From assembly GCA_964443325.1 (NCBI GenBank), contig CAYUCL010000003.1:33961-97960 (forward strand): a stretch of 64,000 nucleotides of DNA. The letters are read 5' to 3'. Origin of the DNA: an uncultured Dehalococcoidales bacterium. Lineage in GTDB: Bacteria > Chloroflexota > Dehalococcoidia > E44-bin15. This document shows, piece after piece, positions 5,458 to 28,172 of this stretch. The notes below the pieces were generated by a model that ran no database searches, was not told the DNA's origin, and saw nothing but the letters and a program-made list of their open reading frames with translations. The position numbers were made by a program, and so were the translations under genes. Numbering within the stretch: position 1 is the stretch's first letter; every line of letters starts with the position of its first letter.

Positions 5458-6195
5458 TCACCCCCCTTGTTTAGTTTGCCCTTCGACTCTCAGGCCTCGC
5501 GGTGTTACCCACTTCTCAATCTGCTCCAACAGGAACCCAAGCGTAATCGCCATGAGCGCTGTAGGTGCCGCTCCCTGGAGTATCAGTAGCGGCTGGGAAG
5601 CCAATACACCCGTAAAGGTTATCCGACCCAACCCCTTGCCACCAACGAGAACAGCCAGTTCCGCCGTACCTACTGTTATAATGGTGCAAAGTCTGATACC
5701 AGCCATTATTACCGGCCTTGCTAAGGGCAACTCGATTTTTCGTGCGATTTGCCACCTGCTCATCCCCATGCCCTTCGCTGCTTCGATTACCGCCAGGTCG
5801 ATGTTGCTTATGCTGACATAGGAGTTCCTCACTATCGGCAATAACCCATATATAACAAGCGCTACAACCGCCGATTGCAAACCAAAACCCAGTAGCGGCG
5901 CCATGATAGCGATGATCGCCAGGCTGGGTATGCTCTGTCCTATATTGGCTCCTCCTATTACCGGGGCCGCCAGTTTCGTCAACCCTGGCCGGGTAACCAA
6001 ACCCCCCAGTGGCACCCCTATGATCGTAGCTATCAGGACAGCCATAAACACCATTTGCAGGTGGTTCCCCGCTTCGCTGAATATGTCTCCCCAGGTGAAG
6101 ACGTCGAAAATCCCTACCTTCTCCAGGCTTGTGATCCAGATGGTCAAGCCAATGAGAACCACTGAGAAAACGAGATAGACAACAAACCGTCTCAT
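5458..6195 (-). CDS. ABC transporter permease (OpuBB/OpuCB-like)
   Basis: Polytopic membrane ORF with the EAA-like loop of binding-protein-dependent permeases. ATGA overlap with the ATPase gene. Confidence 0.8.
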   Translation of the reverse strand: MRRFVVYLVFSVVLIGLTIWITSLEKVGIFDVFTWGDIFSEAGNHLQMVFMAVLIATIIGVPLGGLVTRPGLTKLAAPVIGGANIGQSIPSLAIIAIMAPLLGFGLQSAVVALVIYGLLPIVRNSYVSISNIDLAVIEAAKGMGMSRWQIARKIELPLARPVIMAGIRLCTIITVGTAELAVLVGGKGLGRITFTGVLASQPLLILQGAAPTALMAITLGFLLEQIEKWVTPRGLRVEGQTKQGG

Positions 6196-7304
6196 TCTGA
6201 CCCACTCTCAGACGCCTCTCTCAATCCTCTACGTATGTCGTCAAAGGACAGCACTCCTCGGAGTCTGTTGTCCTTGCCCACCACAGCTAAGACCATTACA
6301 CCACTGCTCAACATCATAGACAGCGCTTCATTCAGCACCATAGTCTCGCCTGCAACCATGGAGGATGGGGTCACTATGGCACCAGCCGTTGCGTCCTGCT
6401 TCACCTCAGCCTCGCCGACCCATCCAATAAACCTCCCGTTAGCATCTACCACCGCAACCACATCCCTCTTCCCTTCCTTGATAAGTTCATCAGCGCGTTT
6501 CACGTTCTCCTCTGCTTTTATAACCAGCGGAGAGGCATCCATAACCTCCGTCACCCGTATCAATTGCAATCCCTTGAGGGCCCTATCGGCACCGATGAAG
6601 TCTTCCACAAACCTATCCTTTGGTCTGTAAGTCAGATCAGCAGGTGTCCCATACTGCACCAGCCTTCCTTCCTTTAGCAAGGCTACCTTGTCACCCATCT
6701 TGATCGCTTCGTAGATGTCGTGTGTTACGAAGACGATGGTCTTTGATATCTCCTGCTGTATCTTGAGGAACTCGTTCTGCAGGTCTATCCTCGTTATGGG
6801 GTCGATGGCTCCGAACGGTTCATCCATTAGCAATGTTGGCGGGTCCACCGCCAGAGCACGAGCCAGACCGACTCGCTGCCGCTGTCCACCCGACAGTTCG
6901 CTGGGGTACTTGCCGAGCACCTCATCTGGGTCCAATCTGACAAGTCCAAGCAGCTCTCTCGCTCTTTCCCTGCGTTTCACTCTGGCCCAACCCTTTAGTA
7001 CGGAAACTGTTTCTATATTTTGCCCTACGGTCATATGGGGGAAGAGCCCAATCTCTTGAATAGCATAACCGATATTCCTCCGCAGTTCGTTCTCATTCAC
7101 CGTGGTCACATCGACCCCATCCAGGTATATCTTACCGCTTGTTATTGGGATGAGACGATTGATCATTTTCATGGTAGTCGTCTTCCCACAGCCCGACGGC
7201 CCCAGAAGCACGCAGAGTTCGCCTTGCTGAACCTCAAAGCTGACGTCATTGACCGCCTGAGTCCCATCAGGGTAGGCCTTAGTAACGTGCTCCAGCGTAA
7301 TCAT
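6192..7304 (-). CDS. quaternary-amine ABC transporter ATP-binding protein with C-terminal CBS pair (OpuCA/ProV-like)
   Basis: Walker A GPSGCGKTT, signature LSGGQRQRV, Walker B LLMDEP, followed by a roughly 120-aa CBS-domain tail. Confidence 0.85.
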   Translation of the reverse strand: MITLEHVTKAYPDGTQAVNDVSFEVQQGELCVLLGPSGCGKTTTMKMINRLIPITSGKIYLDGVDVTTVNENELRRNIGYAIQEIGLFPHMTVGQNIETVSVLKGWARVKRRERARELLGLVRLDPDEVLGKYPSELSGGQRQRVGLARALAVDPPTLLMDEPFGAIDPITRIDLQNEFLKIQQEISKTIVFVTHDIYEAIKMGDKVALLKEGRLVQYGTPADLTYRPKDRFVEDFIGADRALKGLQLIRVTEVMDASPLVIKAEENVKRADELIKEGKRDVVAVVDANGRFIGWVGEAEVKQDATAGAIVTPSSMVAGETMVLNEALSMMLSSGVMVLAVVGKDNRLRGVLSFDDIRRGLREASESGSE

Positions 7305-7308
7305 GGCG

Positions 7309-7986
7309 CTACCTCTTCTTCAGCCCTTTAGACGTAACGGTACTCTGCACCAGCGCCATGACACCGTCAGTTGCCAACGCGAGAAGGGAGACTGTGACGC
7401 CCCCAATGATAATCAAATCCATCCTGGCATTGCGCAGTCCTCTAAATATAGGTGTCCCCAGCCCACCGGCACCGACGAACACGGCTATTGTTGCGATCCC
7501 GATGAGAAGCATAAGTGAATTCCTAACGCCAGCCATTATCACAGGCAACGCGATTGGGAGCTTTACCCGAAGCAGTATCTGCCTTTCGGTCATCCCCATT
7601 CCCCTGCCAACCTCAATGAGCGCCAAATCAACCTGCCGTATCGCCGTATACGTATTGCGTATGATGGGAAGCTGTCCATAGATAACTAACGCAATAATGG
7701 CTGGGAGAAAACCAATGGATTTCAGCGTCATCGCGGCAAGAACAAGCATAAGCAGCCCAAACAGCGCCAGGCTGGGCACAGTCATCATGATCTCAGCCAA
7801 ATACAGGACGGTCTCCGCTAACCTTTCTCTCCCCCTGCCTGAGATGTATATTCCGACAACAAGGCCCAGAATAAGCGCTATGCTGCCAGCGACGAAGACG
7901 AGCCACACATGCCTGGTGGTCCACTCCGCCAGCAGCTCAGGGTGCCGCACGACGAATTCCCACGCCTCAACGATTGCTTCTAACAT
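7309..7986 (-). CDS. ABC transporter permease (second permease of an OpuC-type system)
   Basis: Paralog of the 5458..6195 permease. First gene of the transporter cluster on the minus strand. Confidence 0.8.
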   Translation of the reverse strand: MLEAIVEAWEFVVRHPELLAEWTTRHVWLVFVAGSIALILGLVVGIYISGRGRERLAETVLYLAEIMMTVPSLALFGLLMLVLAAMTLKSIGFLPAIIALVIYGQLPIIRNTYTAIRQVDLALIEVGRGMGMTERQILLRVKLPIALPVIMAGVRNSLMLLIGIATIAVFVGAGGLGTPIFRGLRNARMDLIIIGGVTVSLLALATDGVMALVQSTVTSKGLKKR

Positions 7987-21030: not shown

Positions 21031-21744
21031 ATGGGTGAGAAAATGGAACGGAAAATATATCCACAGTGCCACAGATGTGAGAAGAGGGTCTGCTACCCTA
21101 CCATTGGAGTCGATGAAGAGCCCCCATTTAGTGAGGCGCCGGAATTCTGTCCCATGAGGCTTCATAGCGAGATCATACAAAGTGCGCTCTCCGAGTATGA
21201 CAGGAAGGATGTCAGAGAGTTTGCTCGGCTTGCCTCATTACAGGAGTTTGAATGTTATGAGTGGGTGCCAGAGGGCATAAGGACAAGGTTTCCGCGGGTG
21301 GAAGAGACCATACAGTTCGCCAAGAAAAATGGCTATAAGCGAATTGGCATAGCTTTTTGCATCGGTCTTATGAACGAGGTTCGCATGCTGGCACAAATCC
21401 TGGAGCGTAAGGGCTTCGAAGTTGTCTCTGTATGTTGCAAAGCGGGTGCAATCCCCAAGGAAAGAATAGGGTTGAGGGCGGAGGAGAAGATTCCAGGCCC
21501 GGCAATCTTCGAGTCGATGTGCAGTCCGATAACCCAGGCTGAAATCTTGAACGCAGAAGAGGTCGATTTTGTCATCCAACTGGGCCTTTGTGTAGGACAC
21601 GATACCCTTTTTATGAAGTATTGCCGCCTACCCATGACAGTGCTTGCGGTTAAAGACCGGGTTTTAGGACATAACCCGCTAGCTGCGCTGTATCTATCTA
21701 CTTCGCCCTATTACTCCAGGCTTAGGTCTCGAAAGACGGATTGA
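21031..21744 (+). CDS. DUF1847 family metal-binding protein
   Basis: N-terminal Cys cluster PQCHRCEKRVCYP and the overall pattern recalled for DUF1847. Based on recall only. Confidence 0.5.
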   Translation: MGEKMERKIYPQCHRCEKRVCYPTIGVDEEPPFSEAPEFCPMRLHSEIIQSALSEYDRKDVREFARLASLQEFECYEWVPEGIRTRFPRVEETIQFAKKNGYKRIGIAFCIGLMNEVRMLAQILERKGFEVVSVCCKAGAIPKERIGLRAEEKIPGPAIFESMCSPITQAEILNAEEVDFVIQLGLCVGHDTLFMKYCRLPMTVLAVKDRVLGHNPLAALYLSTSPYYSRLRSRKTD

Positions 21745-21799: not shown

Positions 21800-23659
21800 A
21801 TGAGCGATACTGTTGAAAATTTGGCACCACTTGTCTTGAAACTGGACGTCATGGGACGCCTGGGAGAGGCCTTAGCCTGGAGTAATAGTACTAAGGTATT
21901 CGTCTTTGGAGGTATCCCCGGCGAAGAAGTGCTGGCTGAGGTAGTGCGGCAGCACCACAATCGTATCGCCGCGCGAGTGGTCAAGGTGATAGTTTCCTCT
22001 TCCCAGCGGGTGGAACCGCCATGCCCCTATTTCGGGTCGTGTACCGGGTGTCAGTGGCAACACATCCGCTATGAGCACCAGTTGGAGCTTAAGCACATGA
22101 TGGTCAAGGAGGCCATGGAAGCGATGGGAGGGATGGTCCACGCTCCGGTGGCCCCTGTTGTCCCTGCACCCCAGACCCTGGGCTACCGCAACCACGCCCG
22201 CTTCACCGTGGGGCCAGAGGGCGCCCTCGGTTTCGTCAACCGCGAGAGCCGCCGCTTTGTCCACATCGACCAATGTCTACTCATGCACCCATCGATCAAC
22301 GAAGCACTATCCCAGCTTCAGGGCCGCTGCGCAGAGACTACCCAGCTCTCTATCCGCTATGGAGTAAATACCGGCCAGTGGCTGATTCAGCCCACCCTCA
22401 GAAGGCCTGAAGTTCCTCTATCATCTGGCCAGAAAAGCTACGAGGAGGCTCTTCACAGTAAACTCTTCCGCATATCTGCTGCCTCTTTCTTTCAGGTGAA
22501 CACAGCCCAGGCGGAAAGAATGGCTGAGCTGGTGCGGGAGCGCCTCGCATTGACCGGCGAGGAACTGCTTGTAGACGCCTACGCTGGTGTAGCCACCTTC
22601 GCTGTTCTCTTCGCCCCGTACGCCAGCAAGGTCATCGCCATCGAGGAGTCGGCCTCTGCTATCAAGGATGCCCAGGTCAACATCCAGGGTTTGACTAACA
22701 TTGAGCTTGCCCAGGATAAGACGGAAAAGTTGCTACAGTCCCTCCCGCAAGTACCTGATGCCCTGATTCTGGACCCACCGCGCACCGGATGCCACCCCAC
22801 AGTCCTGCAGACCATCCTGCATCGGCCGCCGCAGCGGATAGTGTATGTCTCGTGTGACCCGTGGGCTCTGGCCCGCGACCTGCGAGTGTTATGCCACGGG
22901 CCTTTTGTTCTGGAAGAGGTGCTACCCATTGACCTCTTTCCCCAGACTCACCACATCGAGTGCATCGCCACCCTATCTTATAGCCCAGAAAGGCAGTATG
23001 CCTTCCAATCACGCCAACAGCTTGTGCTGGCTTCCGAATCCCCCAGGCGGCAGGAGATCATGGCCACCATGGGCCTCACCTTCCAAACAATACCATCGAA
23101 GGTTGATGAGACTCCACCATCCTATGGTGATCCGGTAGCTATTGCCCAGAAAGAGGCCCTCGACAAAGCCCTGGCTGTGGCATCTGACCTGCGCGAGGGA
23201 ACGGTTATCGGAGCCGACACTGTGGTTGCCGATGGGGATGATATCCTGGGCAAGCCTGCAACGGAGGAAGAGGCCTATGCCATGCTGCGCAGGCTTCGTG
23301 GTAAGGAACATCGGGTTATCACCGGGTTAGCCCTGGTAGACGCTGCCAGTGGCGAACAGCTCAGCGGCTACCGCATCAGCCACGTGCGCATGCGAGAATA
23401 TAGCGATGAAGAGATCACTGCCTATATCGCCGCCGGTGATGCCTGGGACAAGGCTGGTGCCTACGGCATCCAGGATACCCAGTTTCATCCCGTGGCTAAG
23501 GTGATGGGCTGCTACCTGAACGTTGTCGGTCTTCCCCCCTGCATACTGCTGCGTCTACTACACCGAATGGGCATATATCCAGCCATCGACCCCAACTGGG
23601 TCCCACCAGGGAAATGCCGCGATTGCCATCGCCTGGCCAGAGATGCCAGGGATAAATGA
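21800..23659 (+). CDS. bifunctional fusion: RNA (uracil-5)-methyltransferase (RlmD/RumA family, TRAM + 4Fe-4S + SAM MTase) fused in frame to a Maf nucleotide pyrophosphatase
   Basis: aa 1-about 395: TRAM region, CPYFGSCTGCQWQH cluster, DAYAGVATFA SAM motif, LDPPRTG and the family C-terminus VYVSCDPWALARDL. aa about 403-600: Maf signature LASESPRRQEIM...IGADTVV.DG.ILGKP...LSG..H.V.TGLAL...AGAYGIQ. There is no stop between the two. Confidence 0.7.
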   Translation: MSDTVENLAPLVLKLDVMGRLGEALAWSNSTKVFVFGGIPGEEVLAEVVRQHHNRIAARVVKVIVSSSQRVEPPCPYFGSCTGCQWQHIRYEHQLELKHMMVKEAMEAMGGMVHAPVAPVVPAPQTLGYRNHARFTVGPEGALGFVNRESRRFVHIDQCLLMHPSINEALSQLQGRCAETTQLSIRYGVNTGQWLIQPTLRRPEVPLSSGQKSYEEALHSKLFRISAASFFQVNTAQAERMAELVRERLALTGEELLVDAYAGVATFAVLFAPYASKVIAIEESASAIKDAQVNIQGLTNIELAQDKTEKLLQSLPQVPDALILDPPRTGCHPTVLQTILHRPPQRIVYVSCDPWALARDLRVLCHGPFVLEEVLPIDLFPQTHHIECIATLSYSPERQYAFQSRQQLVLASESPRRQEIMATMGLTFQTIPSKVDETPPSYGDPVAIAQKEALDKALAVASDLREGTVIGADTVVADGDDILGKPATEEEAYAMLRRLRGKEHRVITGLALVDAASGEQLSGYRISHVRMREYSDEEITAYIAAGDAWDKAGAYGIQDTQFHPVAKVMGCYLNVVGLPPCILLRLLHRMGIYPAIDPNWVPPGKCRDCHRLARDARDK

Positions 23660-23664
23660 TGCTT

Positions 23665-25392
23665 CTACGGCTTTACCCGAAGCGTGCGCAACCGATTTAC
23701 CGCGGCAGCCAACTCCTGCGCTCTGAAGCCTACAAGGTCGGGAGGGTATAGAATGTGAGATATCCCATCGAGTCCCGCCTGTTGCACATCACGTTGGACC
23801 CGCCCTAATATCTCTCGAAGAGGCGTACTACCATCCATGTAGCGCTGTCGTGCGTATGCCATGGCGTATCCGATGGCCTTCACCTGTCCGTCCTCAACAA
23901 CCTGCTCCACATGGGAGAGGTCAATCTCGTCGCGCCCGAACAGAAGCGTACGCGTTCCTCTAGCCTTCAAATTCACCTCACGCCGCCCCTTCCTTGGGTC
24001 CAGGCTCTCCGCAAGAGGAATGCGCTTCGGGATAGGTCCGAAGTGGTCTCCACCCTCTAATGTCCGGTCAGTGGGATACTTTAACGCTATTGCCCTTGCC
24101 TCCTCGGCCACCTCCTGGGGCACGTACTCTACCATTGCGATAACCGTATCCGCCACATCGAAATAGTCCCCCGAACCTCCCATAACCAGCACGGTCGAGA
24201 CTCCGTGGTCTTTATATAACCTCTGCACCTGGTCGACGAAGGGAGTTATTGGCTCATGTCGCTTTTCGACCAAGGCTTGCATCCTTCGATCGCGGATCAT
24301 GAAGTTGGTGGCCGAGGTGTCTTCGTCCACTAGTAGAAGACGGCTTCCCGCCTCCAGCGCCTCAGCGATGTTGGCCGCCTGAGAGGTCGAGCCACTGGCG
24401 TTTTCCGTGGTAAACCATCGGGTGTCCACACCACCCGGCAGCCGATCGATAAATGGCGAGATGTCAACGCCAACCACGCTACGCCCGTCCTCCGCCCGTA
24501 CCTTAAAAGCGGTGGGATCAGAGACCACCAGCTCTCGGCCGTCACCAGGTACGTGATTGTATACCCCACGCTCAAACGCCCGCAGCAGCGTGGACTTCCC
24601 ATGAAAACCGCCCCCAACGATAAGCGTAACACCTTGAGGCATACCCATACCTGTCACGGCACCTCGGCTGGGCGCCCCTATCGTCACCCGCAGGCGTTCC
24701 GGCGAGCGGAATGGAACAGCCCGTGCCAAGGGCCGGTCGTCTACCCCGCTACGGCGTGGGAGCACGCTATCATCAGCGACAAATGCCACCAGCCCGAGTG
24801 TCTCAAGACTTGCCCGCAGTGCATCGGTATCCTCAGAGGCTTCCACATGCTCCCACAGCGCTTTGTGGTCCAGATTTTTAAAGTAAAGTGCCGCTTCCAC
24901 GATGACAGGCAGCGCCTGCACCAGCATATCCTCAGCCTCAACCCCCAGGATACGGCGCCCGGCCGCTGGCAGCCCGACGAAGAAGCGCAGTTCCACATAG
25001 TCTTGGTTCACCTGGCATGCGCTGCGCTCCAGGATCTCCTGCCCTGGAGCGTCAACAAATAGCTGACCGCTCTTGCCTGAACCGCGGCGCTCCGAAACAT
25101 GCCGCGCCTCCCGGGCGAAGGCCCTTACCAGAAAGTCCCGAAGGGCGACCCCCCGCGAGCGGTTGGAAAAGGTCTCTGGCGGAAAATCCGCCACCCCCTG
25201 AGGCACGAGGACGTGGAAACGGCTTGGGGCAGCAAATGGATCCCCTTGAATATGGTCCACTACAAGCTCGAAGCCCGGGAATTGAAAGCGCTGCCTTTCC
25301 AGGTCTTTGTAGGCTTTGTAGCCACGACCATCGATGCGATGCAGGATCTCCCGAAGCCGATTCATCTCAATCAGAATATCCTTTTGCTGCAA
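23665..25392 (-). CDS. ABC-class ATPase domain protein (COG3044-like, P-loop GGGFHGKST)
   Basis: 575-aa ORF with a single Walker A in the middle and the characteristic length of the predicted 'ATPase of the ABC class' family. Its stop is only 5 bp from the stop of the convergent rlmD-maf ORF. Confidence 0.5.
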   Translation of the reverse strand: MQQKDILIEMNRLREILHRIDGRGYKAYKDLERQRFQFPGFELVVDHIQGDPFAAPSRFHVLVPQGVADFPPETFSNRSRGVALRDFLVRAFAREARHVSERRGSGKSGQLFVDAPGQEILERSACQVNQDYVELRFFVGLPAAGRRILGVEAEDMLVQALPVIVEAALYFKNLDHKALWEHVEASEDTDALRASLETLGLVAFVADDSVLPRRSGVDDRPLARAVPFRSPERLRVTIGAPSRGAVTGMGMPQGVTLIVGGGFHGKSTLLRAFERGVYNHVPGDGRELVVSDPTAFKVRAEDGRSVVGVDISPFIDRLPGGVDTRWFTTENASGSTSQAANIAEALEAGSRLLLVDEDTSATNFMIRDRRMQALVEKRHEPITPFVDQVQRLYKDHGVSTVLVMGGSGDYFDVADTVIAMVEYVPQEVAEEARAIALKYPTDRTLEGGDHFGPIPKRIPLAESLDPRKGRREVNLKARGTRTLLFGRDEIDLSHVEQVVEDGQVKAIGYAMAYARQRYMDGSTPLREILGRVQRDVQQAGLDGISHILYPPDLVGFRAQELAAAVNRLRTLRVKP

Positions 25393-25636
25393 ATAGTAAC
25401 GTTCGTATTGACTGCAATATTAGCACTGGGCTATTAATAGAGCAATCTGCACAAATTAACACAACCGCGCTTGTTACAGGTCTTGACAGCCTCCGAGCAG
25501 GCGTTTAGCATACCCGCACCAGCAGATACGGGAAATCCCTGTATATGGAGAAAACGGTGGCTGTGATTAAATGCCGAGCTATTATAGATATCATATGTAG
25601 CTGCCCTACCATCAAGAAGCGAAAGAGGTTTTCTTT

Positions 25637-26500
25637 ATGAACGATAAGCTGAAGATTGCTGCGGTGCAGATGGAACCCAAGATCCTGGAGAAGGATAGGA
25701 ACCTGACAAGATGCCTCGAGCTGATTCAGGTCACCGCCAGGGAGAGCGCTCAGCTTATTGTCTTTCCTGAATGCGCTTTGACTGGGTACGTATTTACCAG
25801 CCTTGAGGAAGCACTGCCCCTTTGCGAATCTATCCCAGGTACCAGCACCGGAAAAATCATTAGCGTGTGCCGTGAACTGAATGTATATGTGGTACTTGGT
25901 TTGTTAGAAAGGGAGGCTGACAAATACTACAATGCCGCAGTCCTTCTGGGCCCTGGGGGAGTGCTCGCCAAATATCGCAAGATCCACCTTCCCTATCTAG
26001 GGGTTGACCGCTTCTTGAACCATGGCGACCTACCACCAACTGTATGTCAGACAGAGATAGGCAGGATAGGGATAGGCATCTGCTATGATATAAATTTTCC
26101 AGAACACGCACGTGTTATGGCATTGCAGGGAGCAGATATCATCGTTCTCCCAACGAACTGGCCTTTGCACAGGGAGTTCGTCCCAGAGCATATTGTCCCG
26201 GCAAGAGCCGCTGAGAACCTGGTCTTCGTTGTTGCTGTCAATCGTGCTGGTGAGGAACGAGGCATAAGGTTTATCGGTCGCAGCAAGATCGCCCATTGGT
26301 CCGGAGGGATAGCTCTGGCTGAAGGGAAGCCCTATGAAGAAGATGTCCTTTATGCTAATATCGAACCAGCAACAGCCAGGGAGAAGCACTTGGTATTCAC
26401 TCCTGGAGAGTTTGAGGTGGACATCTTCAAGGACCGAAGGCCAGAGCTATACGGTGTTATCACTAAGCCCTTGGATGATCCTTCTCGCATTAGGAAGTGA
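25637..26500 (+). CDS. carbon-nitrogen hydrolase (nitrilase superfamily)
   Basis: Glu-Lys-Cys triad context: IAAVQME, FPECALTGY, and a Cys in the IGIGICYD region. Confidence 0.8.
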   Translation: MNDKLKIAAVQMEPKILEKDRNLTRCLELIQVTARESAQLIVFPECALTGYVFTSLEEALPLCESIPGTSTGKIISVCRELNVYVVLGLLEREADKYYNAAVLLGPGGVLAKYRKIHLPYLGVDRFLNHGDLPPTVCQTEIGRIGIGICYDINFPEHARVMALQGADIIVLPTNWPLHREFVPEHIVPARAAENLVFVVAVNRAGEERGIRFIGRSKIAHWSGGIALAEGKPYEEDVLYANIEPATAREKHLVFTPGEFEVDIFKDRRPELYGVITKPLDDPSRIRK

Positions 26501-26738
26501 TACAGCGTCCTAGACTAGGCTACCCGTGATAGGATATTGGACGTATTCCAAGTCCATGTATCTGGTGGCTAGGTGGCATTGCCAGTGAAGGTATCAATTG
26601 ATAAAGACTATACCCCAAGGCTGGTGGCGCGATCCCAGATGCCAGTTTGGTGAACTCAGCCTGTTCCTGTAGGGGCATTCAATTGAACGTCCCTACAAAG
26701 CAACAGGTTTCATAATATTTTCATAGGAGGTGACAACC

Positions 26739-28172
26739 ATGGCGAAATCTGCCGAACTCGCTTTCCTTGACGCTATTGCCCAGGCAGGCCTGGTGCGGCG
26801 GAAGGAGGTCAAGCCAATCGAACTTGTGGACGCGGCCATTGAGCGGATCGAGCGCCTCAATCCTACCCTCAATGCAGTGATCACGCCAATGTACGAACAG
26901 GCTCGCACCGCTGCCAACAGCGCACTTCCCGAGGGACCCTTCACCGGGGTGCCCTTCCTGCTCAAGGACGTCATTGCCAGCTATGCTGGCGTGCGAATGA
27001 CGTTTGGGTCGAGTTTCCTGCGCGACCACGTACCGGACCACGATAGCGAGCTGGTGTCACGGCACAAGCGTGCCGGTCTGATCGTCCTCGGCAAGACCAA
27101 CGCTCCCGAGTTTGGCATACTTCCTACCACCGAGCCGCATCTCTTTGGTCCTACGCATAATCCATGGGATACGAGCCGAACCTCAGGCGGGTCCAGCGGT
27201 GGCTCGGCCGCGGCTGTTGCCGCTGGCATGATACCCATGGCCCATGGCAATGACGGCGGTGGCTCTATTCGTATTCCCGCCTCCTGTTGTGGTGTCTTCG
27301 GTCTCAAGCCCACTCGAGGGCGTACGTCGCTTGGCCCTGACTTCGGCGACCTGATAGGCGGCTTTGTCGAGGAGCACGCCCTCACCCGGACGGTGCGGGA
27401 TAGCGCCGCCCTGCTTGACGCCAACGCAGGCCCTTCCATTGGCGACCCCTACTGGGCGCCCAAACCTGCCCGTCCCTTCCTTGAGGAGGTGGGCGCCGAT
27501 CCAGGGCGTTTGCGCATCGCCTTCACTACCGAAACGGCTACCGGCGTCGCGGTCCAACCCGACTGCGTCGCCGCCGTCCACGACGCAGCCAAGCTCTGCA
27601 GCGACATGGGCCACGACGTGGTGGAGGCCAACATGTCACTGCCTGGTGATTCGCTCGTTCAAGCTTTCATAACCGTTTGGTGTGCCATGGTAGCCTGGAC
27701 CATTGATGGCATGGCTCTCATCACCGGTCGTACGCCATCCGCCGACCAGTTTGAGCCGCTCACCTGGGCATTGTACGAAGCGGGCCACCAGAGAACCGCG
27801 TCAGAGTACCTGTTGGCGGTGACGACACTCCAGTTGATTTCCCGTGAGATCGCTCGCTTCCGCGCCGACTACGACGTGATTCTGACCCCCACCCTGGCCG
27901 AGCCCCCACCACCGCTGGGCACCTTCGATTCACCTCCGGACAACCCGTGGCAGGGTCTCTTTCGATCCGCTGAATTCATGCCCTTCACCCCGCTGTGCAA
28001 CTTCACCGGTCTACCTGGCATGTCCATGCCTCTCTTCTGGAACTCGGAGGGAATCCCCATCGGCACGCACTTCGTAGGACGTTACGGTGACGAAGCCACT
28101 CTCTTTCGCCTTGCGGCACAGCTTGAGGAGGCGCATCCATGGGCCGAGCGCCTACCTCCGGTGTCAGCTTGA
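26739..28172 (+). CDS. amidase (amidase-signature family, GatA-like)
   Basis: AS signature [15 protein letters not shown] and the Ser-cisSer-Lys context. ATG at 26739 is preferred over the tool's GTG at 26730 because AGGAGG sits 8 nt upstream. Confidence 0.8.

Follow-up and report, generated by a model that had tools for sequence, protein, structure and literature searches.

Architecture of the fusion gene

The DNA analyzed here, which we refer to as the window, is a 64-kb stretch from an uncultured Chloroflexota bacterium that carries on its + strand a gene of 619 codons plus stop (21800..23659). The ORF list and the sequence define a single open reading frame, running from an ATG at 21800 to a stop codon at 23657-23659 with no internal stops. 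The encoded 619-aa protein combines, in this order, a RumA/RlmD-type TRAM/[4Fe-4S]/SAM RNA uracil-C5 methyltransferase (residues ~1-395), a YhdE-type Maf (~406-590), and a Cys-rich tail. An in-frame fusion of a complete RumA-family methyltransferase to a complete Maf is what the original prediction, an earlier reading of this DNA, had described, and it is borne out: both halves match Pfam and NCBIfam models, family cutoffs are passed, and every catalytic residue is invariant in both domains. The motifs that it quoted can all be located, SCDPWALARDL with C352, DLFPQTHHIE with E387, LASESPRRQEIM starting at residue 410, and GAYGIQ with Q558 as its last residue. The GC content of the gene, 0.578 versus 0.508 for the window, is unexceptional given 2-kb bins of 0.45-0.58, and no second Maf or m5U methyltransferase paralog is found within the 64 kb.

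The methyltransferase half opens with a TRAM-like, presumably RNA-binding beta-barrel (residues ~11-65; 21830..21994, + strand) that has five strands in the AlphaFold model. The Pfam TRAM model is not significant on the window protein, yet it matches several homologs; NCBIfam models align from residue 11, and Foldseek alignments to RumA and RlmCD span the entire targets. The modeled five-strand barrel and the full-length Foldseek alignments together indicate that the TRAM domain of the RumA/RlmD-type family is present. The central domain (21995..22444, + strand) contains four predicted [4Fe-4S] cysteines, C75 (22022-22024), C81, C84 (22049-22051), and C159 (22274-22276), which are invariant in 33 fusion proteins and align with the cluster cysteines of PabTrmU54/RumA; the four-Cys set of the RumA/RlmD-type family is complete, and cluster binding is predicted. 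Then follows the class I SAM-dependent uracil-C5 methyltransferase catalytic domain (22445..22984, + strand), assigned from Pfam PF05958, invariant columns, and alignment to 2jjq and 5xj1. Here we find the putative motif VI nucleophile C352 (22853-22855, + strand) and motif VIII general base E387 (22958-22960), along with F230/Q232 of motif X, which serve uracil recognition, D259..G263 of motif I, E282, and DPPRxG at 325-330, all invariant in 33 sequences and aligned to PabTrmU54; the residue roles are those defined for RumA-type uracil-C5 methyltransferases (PMC2528175).

Which RNA might this enzyme methylate? Matches to Pfam tRNA_U5-meth_tr (PF05958; residues 222-390, E 1.1e-17, 64.5 bits versus a cutoff of 23) and to the NCBIfam model TIGR00479 rumA (288.7 bits, cutoff 183.55) place the window methyltransferase among the RumA/RlmD-type RNA (uracil-C5)-methyltransferases (COG2265, TIGR00479, PF05958). 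The score against the RlmD equivalog NF009639 (E. coli, 23S rRNA U1939) is 216.7 bits, below the cutoff of 458. Of the label "rRNA m5U methyltransferase (RlmD/RumA family)" that had been proposed, RumA family membership stands, but "rRNA" is only a candidate target: NF009639 is below cutoff, and enzymes of the RumA kind may act specifically on tRNA (PMC2528175). Moreover, the top sequence match in the PDB belongs to a tRNA U54 enzyme, and therefore the RNA target is not assignable by homology. The candidates are 23S U1939, U747, or tRNA U54, among which the sequence does not discriminate.

The Maf half (residues ~406-590; 23015..23569, + strand) is assigned as a YhdE-type nucleoside-triphosphate pyrophosphatase domain from Pfam Maf (PF02545; residues 407-589, E 5.6e-54, 183.1 bits versus a cutoff of 27), from TIGR00172 maf (156.4 bits, cutoff 117.15), and from Foldseek, with TM scores of 0.78-0.89 against Maf, YhdE, and ASMTL-Maf. 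The Maf signature S-R-E-K-D-K, corresponding to S10, R13, E33, K52, D70, and K82 of YhdE (PMC3899018), is present as S414, R417, E437, K456, D473 (23216-23218), and K485; in 33 sequences, all of these residues are invariant except E437 (≥90%). Subfamilies are distinguished by the motifs R-T-Q for YhdE and W-Q-E for YceF (PMC3899018), and the window protein has R-T-Q in the form of R416, T474 (Ser in a few homologs), and Q558. Score, signature, and motif agree in assigning the domain to the YhdE subfamily, whose R-T-Q motif marks the Mafs that prefer m5UTP (PMC3899018); as a member, the window Maf would be expected to favor m5UTP, pseudo-UTP, and dTTP. Where the Maf domain gives way to the C-terminal tail, the protein carries four cysteines, C571, C581, C606, and C609 (GCY..LPPC..CxxC; 23510..23626, + strand), a candidate metal site that is invariant in 33/33 fusions. 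We rejected this Cys4 tail as a fusion-specific trait since unfused Mafs from Anaerolineae and other Chloroflexota also have it, with C-x7-C; it is absent in the other phyla sampled.

A short connector (residues 396-405; 22985..23014, + strand), predicted by AlphaFold to be a helix over residues 396-405 with a block pLDDT of ~95-97, joins the two halves, and both its length and its sequence differ among homologs, as reflected in variable alignment columns. The original prediction had given the junction as 22960-23030, which is residues 388-410. The AlphaFold model of the whole fusion has a pTM of 0.88, and the predicted folds of both halves are confirmed by the model and Foldseek; compactness, here and below, is judged from the pLDDT and pTM of AlphaFold models only.

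Could a missing base or stop, in sequencing or in assembly, have joined two neighboring genes? Adjacent separate genes do exist in relatives, but the identical fusion ORF turns up on 9 contigs, which were assembled from at least 5 independent samples/runs, and 120/120 best homolog clusters, at 52-100% identity and from Dehalococcoidia, SAR202, and Dehalogenimonas, are fused. The diverged fused clusters number more than 120, drawn from NCBI, JGI, ENA, and Logan assemblies, and clustering at 50% leaves 7 full-length fused representatives. Codon-level purifying selection also spans the junction: dN/dS is 0.146 for the whole gene against a 91%-identical homolog, 0.06-0.20 across all segments including the junction, and 0.06-0.16 for residues 388-409. 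Given the recurrence of the identical ORF, the fused homolog clusters, and the dN/dS values, we reject a junction artifact or frameshift, the one outcome named at the outset as fatal to the fusion, and regard its probability as negligible.

Recurrence of the linkage and its known relatives

At least three further linkages of a RumA-type methyltransferase with a Maf occur, in sister Dehalococcoidia, Aminicenantes, and Coriobacteriia. Homologous loci, at which a comparison of fused versus separate genes had been suggested, include both: the best 120 clusters are fused, and sister Dehalococcoidia have separate rlmD and maf genes that abut or overlap through a GTGA stop/start, with overlapping genes at loci L001, L002, L003, L028, and L035. 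Aminicenantes have a fusion family in the reverse order, Maf-RumA, in which 120/120 best hits are fused and all catalytic residues are invariant, and an rlmD/DJ-1/maf gene cluster is present in at least 7 Coriobacteriia loci. In most bacteria among the matches listed, maf is unlinked to any m5U methyltransferase; the contig scan was seeded with motifs from both halves and is a biased sample rather than a census, and we claim no frequencies from it. Fused and unfused forms are interleaved in a rough NJ tree, which carries no support values and serves only as a hint on the number of fusion events.

Beyond the pair itself, the genomic context varies. The neighbors of the fusion encode DUF1847 and an ABC-class ATPase in the window, and DmpG and TatA/TatC in SAR202; in Dehalogenimonas, the gene for the ribosome GTPase BipA lies 18 nt upstream of the fusion and the other neighbor has no assigned function. 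Across the window, Dehalogenimonas, SAR202, and the P0003 contig, there is no conserved neighborhood that might explain function, and the methyltransferase-Maf pair persists regardless. Nor does any of the lineages examined have mre/min or other division genes close to the fusion.

The theme of a Maf fused to a methyltransferase has already been published for eukaryotic ASMTL, and a Maf-methyltransferase link has been noted in both eukaryotes and archaea (PMC3899018). In human ASMTL and other eukaryotic fusions (PDB 2P5X), a YhdE-type Maf is likewise covalently joined to a SAM-methyltransferase-like domain, an arrangement that has been interpreted as a tie between methylation and modified-nucleotide clearance (PMC3899018), and few solved structures match the window Maf as well as the Maf domain of ASMTL does, at ~40% identity. 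However, Maf is N-terminal in ASMTL and its partner is an ASMT-like O-methyltransferase, whereas in the window Maf is C-terminal and its partner is a TRAM/[4Fe-4S] RNA uracil-C5 methyltransferase. We considered and rejected an ASMTL-type assignment; with the order methyltransferase→Maf and a PF05958 methyltransferase, the window protein is analogous to this group and not a member of it. The expected product of the window methyltransferase (m5U) corresponds directly to the best substrate of Maf.

Each half also has well-characterized stand-alone counterparts. E. coli RumA/RlmD (1UWV, 2BH2) and S. pneumoniae RlmCD (5XJ1, 5ZQ0) share the three-domain fold (Foldseek TM 0.76-0.79, normalized to target) at ~22-24% identity by structural alignment, and the window protein shares with RumA-type enzymes the Fe-S cysteines, a Cys nucleophile in motif VI, and a Glu base in motif VIII; the solved RumA-family structures are without Maf. 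Of the solved structures, Pyrococcus abyssi PabTrmU54 (2JJQ, 2VS1; E 1.9e-40) matches best in sequence; it has the same TRAM/Fe-S/methyltransferase layout, but it methylates tRNA U54 rather than rRNA (PMC2528175) and lacks a Maf domain. Among Mafs, E. coli YhdE and B. subtilis Maf (4P0E, 1EX2, 4HEB) share the fold (TM 0.84-0.89, 37-40% identity) together with S-R-E-K-D-K and R-T-Q; they are stand-alone proteins of ~190 aa, whereas the window Maf is part of a fusion. It also has two additional cysteines and a CxxC tail, which other Chloroflexota Mafs share. The Maf-RumA proteins of Aminicenantes/Ca. Saccharicenans (e.g. P0123, and L041 at 6004-7932; database entries only) also hold both enzymatic modules in one polypeptide and are predicted to be compact (pTM 0.78), but Maf comes first, the methyltransferase is ~25% identical to that of the window and belongs to a distant clade, and there is no Cys4 tail; they represent an independent fusion event. 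A full-text search found no literature on Maf combined with RumA, RlmD, or TrmA, and the word Maf is absent from PMC5851275 and from candidate comparative-genomics papers. The sequences of these fusions are already in databases, and we found no paper that describes the RumA-Maf architecture.

What the linkage might mean

The original prediction saw in the fusion a Rosetta-stone association, and this argument is now stronger than it could have known, with at least three further linkages and the R-T-Q motif to support it; functional coupling of the methyltransferase and the Maf is what we infer from these sequence data. We think it probable that this is one bifunctional protein that would write m5U and hydrolyze m5UTP, with the two activities coupled by co-expression rather than by channeling. 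By homology, the TRAM and Fe-S domains of the N-terminal module would bind an RNA, and C5 of one specific uridine would be methylated with SAM, Cys352 attacking C6 and Glu387 taking the C5 proton, as in RumA. In the Maf domain, Asp473 and Glu437 with a divalent metal would hydrolyze pyrimidine NTPs to NMP and PPi; m5UTP is the preferred in vitro substrate of characterized YhdE-type Mafs (PMC3899018). Turnover of m5U-containing RNA may release m5UMP. Re-phosphorylation could turn this into m5UTP, open to misincorporation into RNA, and Maf would remove it. Substrate channeling is not proposed because the methyltransferase product remains within the polymer; instead, fusion or tight translational coupling would allow the m5U writer and the m5UTP sanitizer to be made and inherited together. 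The fusion was most likely born by stop loss in an ancestral overlapping rlmD-maf pair, and GTGA junctions persist in relatives. House-cleaning keeps the status of a proposal because, for E. coli YhdE, the detectable in vivo substrates are dTTP and UTP, with modified NTPs below detection (PMC3899018).

Could the covalent link be without functional meaning? Because overlapping stop/start junctions ease fusion mechanistically, joining the two genes could in itself have been a neutral step; with the GTGA/short-overlap junctions of unfused relatives, a 1-nt change would be enough for co-transcribed but unrelated housekeeping genes to lose the intervening stop. The interleaving of fused and unfused forms in the rough tree and a connector that varies in both length and sequence fit such an origin. 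We nonetheless consider neutrality unlikely: the pairing is conserved where the flanks are not, another phylum has its own fusion with the domains in the opposite order, a third linkage occurs in Coriobacteriia, the junction is under purifying selection, and both fusions are modeled as compact (pTM 0.88 and 0.78). It is similarly improbable, in our view, that Maf acts on canonical dTTP/UTP or brakes division while tied to a ribosome-maturation enzyme, which would let nucleotide supply or division keep pace with ribosome biogenesis, with no m5UTP clearance. This would accord with the altered dTMP and UMP levels upon YhdE overexpression and with dTTP/UTP as apparent in vivo substrates (PMC3899018), with maf overexpression phenotypes and the location of Firmicutes maf in the mre/min cell-shape cluster (PMC8136486), and with the BipA gene 18 nt upstream in Dehalogenimonas; however, no mre/min or other division genes adjoin the fusion in the lineages examined, and the specific partner in each of three independent lineages is an m5U writer, which fits the best in vitro YhdE-type substrate.

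Two further readings concern how the domains might work together. Maf could serve as a non-hydrolytic accessory, i.e. a nucleotide/RNA-binding or dimerization module that changes which target the methyltransferase selects or how it oligomerizes, and the confident compact model with its rigid helical connector and the dimerization of Maf proteins via their C-terminal region (PMC3899018) are in keeping with this idea. Yet in both independent fusion families S414, R417, E437, K456, D473, and K485, all of them hydrolytic residues, show either no variation or at least 90% conservation, which is unexpected for a purely structural role, and we judge this reading very unlikely. Alternatively, RlmD-type writers and YhdE-type Mafs might form a physically coupled machine, beyond co-expression, and may interact even if separately encoded; both independent fusions have essentially no flexible linker in the predicted compact proteins. 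The Maf site would then sense or hydrolyze m5UTP to gate methylation, or would act on an RNA-linked nucleotide in ribosome/tRNA maturation. We regard physical coupling as quite doubtful and continue to favor a bifunctional protein coupled by co-expression.

Significance for the Maf family

Maf proteins, named as septation inhibitors, are nearly universal, and their physiological role has been unsettled ever since that naming. The proposal that Mafs sanitize modified-nucleotide pools was reportedly made in 2013 on the basis of in vitro kinetics alone. The repeated independent coupling of a YhdE-type Maf to an m5U writer, in two fusion orders in two phyla and in operons in others, is the kind of evidence that gene-fusion analysis is built to find, and it provides good genomic support for the proposed "clean-up" role. 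The automated names "Maf family nucleotide pyrophosphatase" and "RlmD" each conceal half of the fusion protein. If the domains do prove to be physically coupled, Maf would have a direct role in RNA biogenesis, which would account for its puzzling growth/division phenotypes. Do cells that make m5U-containing RNA need to destroy m5UTP? These fusions are natural single-polypeptide objects with which to ask.

A single reading frame with both active sites

The fusion gene is an uninterrupted open reading frame of 619 codons on the forward strand, from an ATG at 21800 to a stop codon at 23657–23659, which confirms the original prediction that an RlmD/RumA-type methyltransferase (MTase) continues in frame into a Maf domain; the motifs then quoted are found where they had been placed, and the proposed junction (22960–23030) corresponds to residues 388–410. 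Each half is matched by Pfam (tRNA_U5-meth_tr, residues 222–390, E = 1.1e-17; Maf, residues 407–589, E = 5.6e-54) and by NCBIfam (TIGR00479, rumA, 288.7 bits, cutoff 183.55; TIGR00172, maf, 156.4 bits, cutoff 117.15); against NF009639, the more stringent equivalog for RlmD of the E. coli type, the protein scores 216.7 bits, below the required 458. The region at 22001–28000, fusion gene included, has the highest GC content of the window (0.556–0.583 against a mean of 0.508), probably as ordinary heterogeneity, since a second bin at 40–42 kb also reaches 0.570.

Invariance was judged by aligning 33 fusion proteins of the same domain order (MTase–Maf), with residues numbered as in the window protein. 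In the MTase half, the four Fe–S cysteines (C75, C81, C84, C159), motif X (F230, Q232), the SAM motifs (D259–G263, E282, DPPRxG at 325–330), the motif VI nucleophile C352, and the motif VIII base E387 are invariant and align with counterparts in PabTrmU54, the Pyrococcus abyssi tRNA U54 enzyme; the roles of C389, E424, Q265, F263, and the four cluster cysteines of RumA are set out in PMC2528175. We leave the RNA target general because the best sequence match among solved structures is a tRNA U54 enzyme. In the Maf half, the S-R-E-K-D-K signature is complete, with S414, R417, K456, D473, and K485 invariant and E437 at least 90% conserved, and the R-T-Q motif that defines the YhdE subfamily (PMC3899018) is present as R416, T474, and Q558. 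YhdE-type enzymes hydrolyse dTTP, UTP, CTP, m5UTP, pseudo-UTP, and m5CTP, with the lowest KM and highest kcat/KM for m5UTP (PMC3899018).

Four further cysteines (C571, C581, C606, C609; 23510–23626) are conserved at and beyond the end of the Maf domain. They recur in Chloroflexota Mafs, fused or stand-alone, among them those of loci L011, L012, L013, L015, L016, L019, L021, L033, and L035, as GC..LPxC..CxxC in Dehalococcoidia and with C-x7-C in Anaerolineae, and are absent from the sampled Mafs of other phyla; this Chloroflexota feature may be a structural Zn or Fe–S site.

An AlphaFold model built with the 33-protein alignment (mean pLDDT 91.2, pTM 0.88) predicts a five-strand barrel at residues 11–65 and, confidently, a helix at 396–405 connecting both enzymes. 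By Foldseek, residues ∼1–395 match RlmCD, RumA, and PabTrmU54 (TM 0.76–0.79 of target), and the C-terminal part matches Maf, YhdE, and the Maf domain of human ASMTL (TM 0.78–0.89); none of the matches is a solved chain spanning both halves.

Recurrence, selection, and unfused relatives

An artefactual fusion would be extraordinarily hard to reconcile with its recurrence, and we conclude that the frame is genuine. Nine contigs carry a gene for exactly this 619-residue protein; they come from five or more independent samples or runs, and on each of them the gene is flanked by one for a DUF1847 protein and one for an ABC-class ATPase. All of the best 120 cluster representatives, whose identity ranges from 100% to 52%, combine the two Pfam domains in a single chain of about 500–700 residues; where the source is named, it is Chloroflexota, Dehalococcoidia, the SAR202 cluster, or Dehalogenimonas sp. 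THU2, and NCBI calls such proteins ‘Maf family nucleotide pyrophosphatase’ or ‘RlmD’. Among 1.84 billion representatives scanned exhaustively with HMMER, there are seven full-length same-order fusion clusters at 50% identity, plus fragments. Purifying selection extends across the gene: against a 91%-identical homologue, dN/dS is 0.146 overall, 0.06 at the junction (residues 388–409), 0.14 in the Maf part, and 0.17 in the C-terminal tail, and against an 80%-identical homologue it is 0.15 overall.

Orthologous loci hold both arrangements, fused in those 120 clusters and separate, on the same strand and in different frames, in four Dehalococcoidia species genomes (L001, L002, L003, L028; 42–54% identical) and another Chloroflexota MAG (L035). 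The two genes meet at a GTGA stop/start overlap in L035 and L002, an ATG 22 nt before the end of the stop in L003, a GTG 23 nt past the stop in L028, and a 57–114 nt gap in L001; from such stop/start junctions, a single-base change could yield a fusion. In a neighbour-joining tree of MTases, which is rough and carries no support values, all 33 aligned fusions fall in one large clade adjoining the unfused L001 and P0138, and a few further fused representatives are dispersed among stand-alone enzymes, which points to a single main fusion as likely, with additional ones possible. The sampled Anaerolineae, Caldilineales, and other Chloroflexota classes have only stand-alone Maf.

Flanking genes differ wholly from lineage to lineage, so conservation is confined to the MTase–Maf pair. 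A Cys-rich DUF1847 gene (21031–21744, forward strand) lies 55 nt upstream on the same strand, kept in near-identical contigs (L086, L088, L089) and absent from more distant fusion-bearing genomes, and a convergent MRB1590-type ABC-class ATPase gene (23665–25392, reverse strand; domains ABC_N, ABC_ATPase, MRB1590_C) ends 5 nt from the fusion stop. In one lineage only, that of Dehalogenimonas sp. THU2, the fusion gene (L081, 4175–5983, forward strand) is preceded at 18 nt by the end of bipA/typA, which encodes a ribosome-associated GTPase.

Independent pairings of Maf with RumA-type enzymes

A 642-residue protein at L041 (6004–7932, forward strand) has the reverse order, Maf then TRAM/Fe–S/MTase. 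It belongs to a large family (that of P0123), in which its best 120 matches all have both domains in 625–673 residues; the names given are mostly Aminicenantes or Ca. Saccharicenans, with ‘RumA/MAF protein’ as the JGI label of some. The HMMER scan found eight reverse-order clusters, and the catalytic residues of both domains are all invariant among 26 members. In the compact AlphaFold model (pLDDT 88.7, pTM 0.78), the final helix of Maf leads directly into the TRAM barrel. This is an independent recurrence, with an MTase ∼25% identical to that of the window and in a distant clade of the tree. The L041 record is labelled ‘Eubacteriales’ and may be mislabelled, given that every one of its closest homologues is named Aminicenantes.

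In seven Coriobacteriia loci (Collinsella, Ca. Coprousia), rlmD-like, DJ-1/PfpI, and maf genes lie in this order on the same strand, and the DJ-1/PfpI-family gene overlaps the start of maf; the cluster at L007 (5965–8613, forward strand) has its counterparts in L006, L008, L009, L010, L014, and L018. Every linked Maf inspected has the YhdE-type motif.

A putative writer of m5U and sanitiser of m5UTP

The two enzymes form one polypeptide that is intact, recurrent, and under selection and that keeps both active sites, and we think it fairly probable that it couples a writer of m5U to a sanitiser of m5UTP. By homology, the MTase would use C352 and E387 to methylate a specific uridine in RNA at C5 with SAM, and Maf would use D473 and E437 for metal-dependent hydrolysis of pyrimidine NTPs, chiefly m5UTP. 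Turnover of m5U-containing RNA would release m5UMP, which could be re-phosphorylated to m5UTP and misincorporated into RNA unless cleared by Maf; fusion or translational coupling would ensure that writer and sanitiser are expressed and inherited jointly. Such coupling would not be channelling, because the MTase product is polymer-bound.

Two observations count against this reading. Work in E. coli indicates dTTP and UTP as the detectable in vivo substrates of YhdE (PMC3899018), and MTase and maf are unlinked in most bacteria sampled. That the fusion instead couples growth or division through canonical dTTP/UTP is unlikely in our estimation. We regard a neutral fusion as similarly improbable. 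A non-catalytic, accessory Maf domain is more doubtful still. The original prediction, that the fusion links m5U synthesis to modified-nucleotide clearance, gains support from these comparisons, with a mechanism and RNA target that we infer.

In principle such a fusion is unsurprising. According to PMC3899018, many eukaryotes have a protein that combines Maf with a predicted methyltransferase (human ASMTL), some archaea show an association between the genes, and both are interpreted there as signs of a functional relationship. An ASMTL-type fusion is ruled out here by the opposite domain order and by the partner, an ASMT-like O-methyltransferase in ASMTL but an RNA m5U methyltransferase in the window protein. 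Public databases already hold both fusion types under one-sided automated names, and a full-text literature search found no paper linking Maf with RumA, RlmD, or TrmA. The value of the fusion is that its partner's product matches the best substrate of Maf in a pairing that recurs independently, which makes the long-standing question of the physiological role of Maf directly testable.
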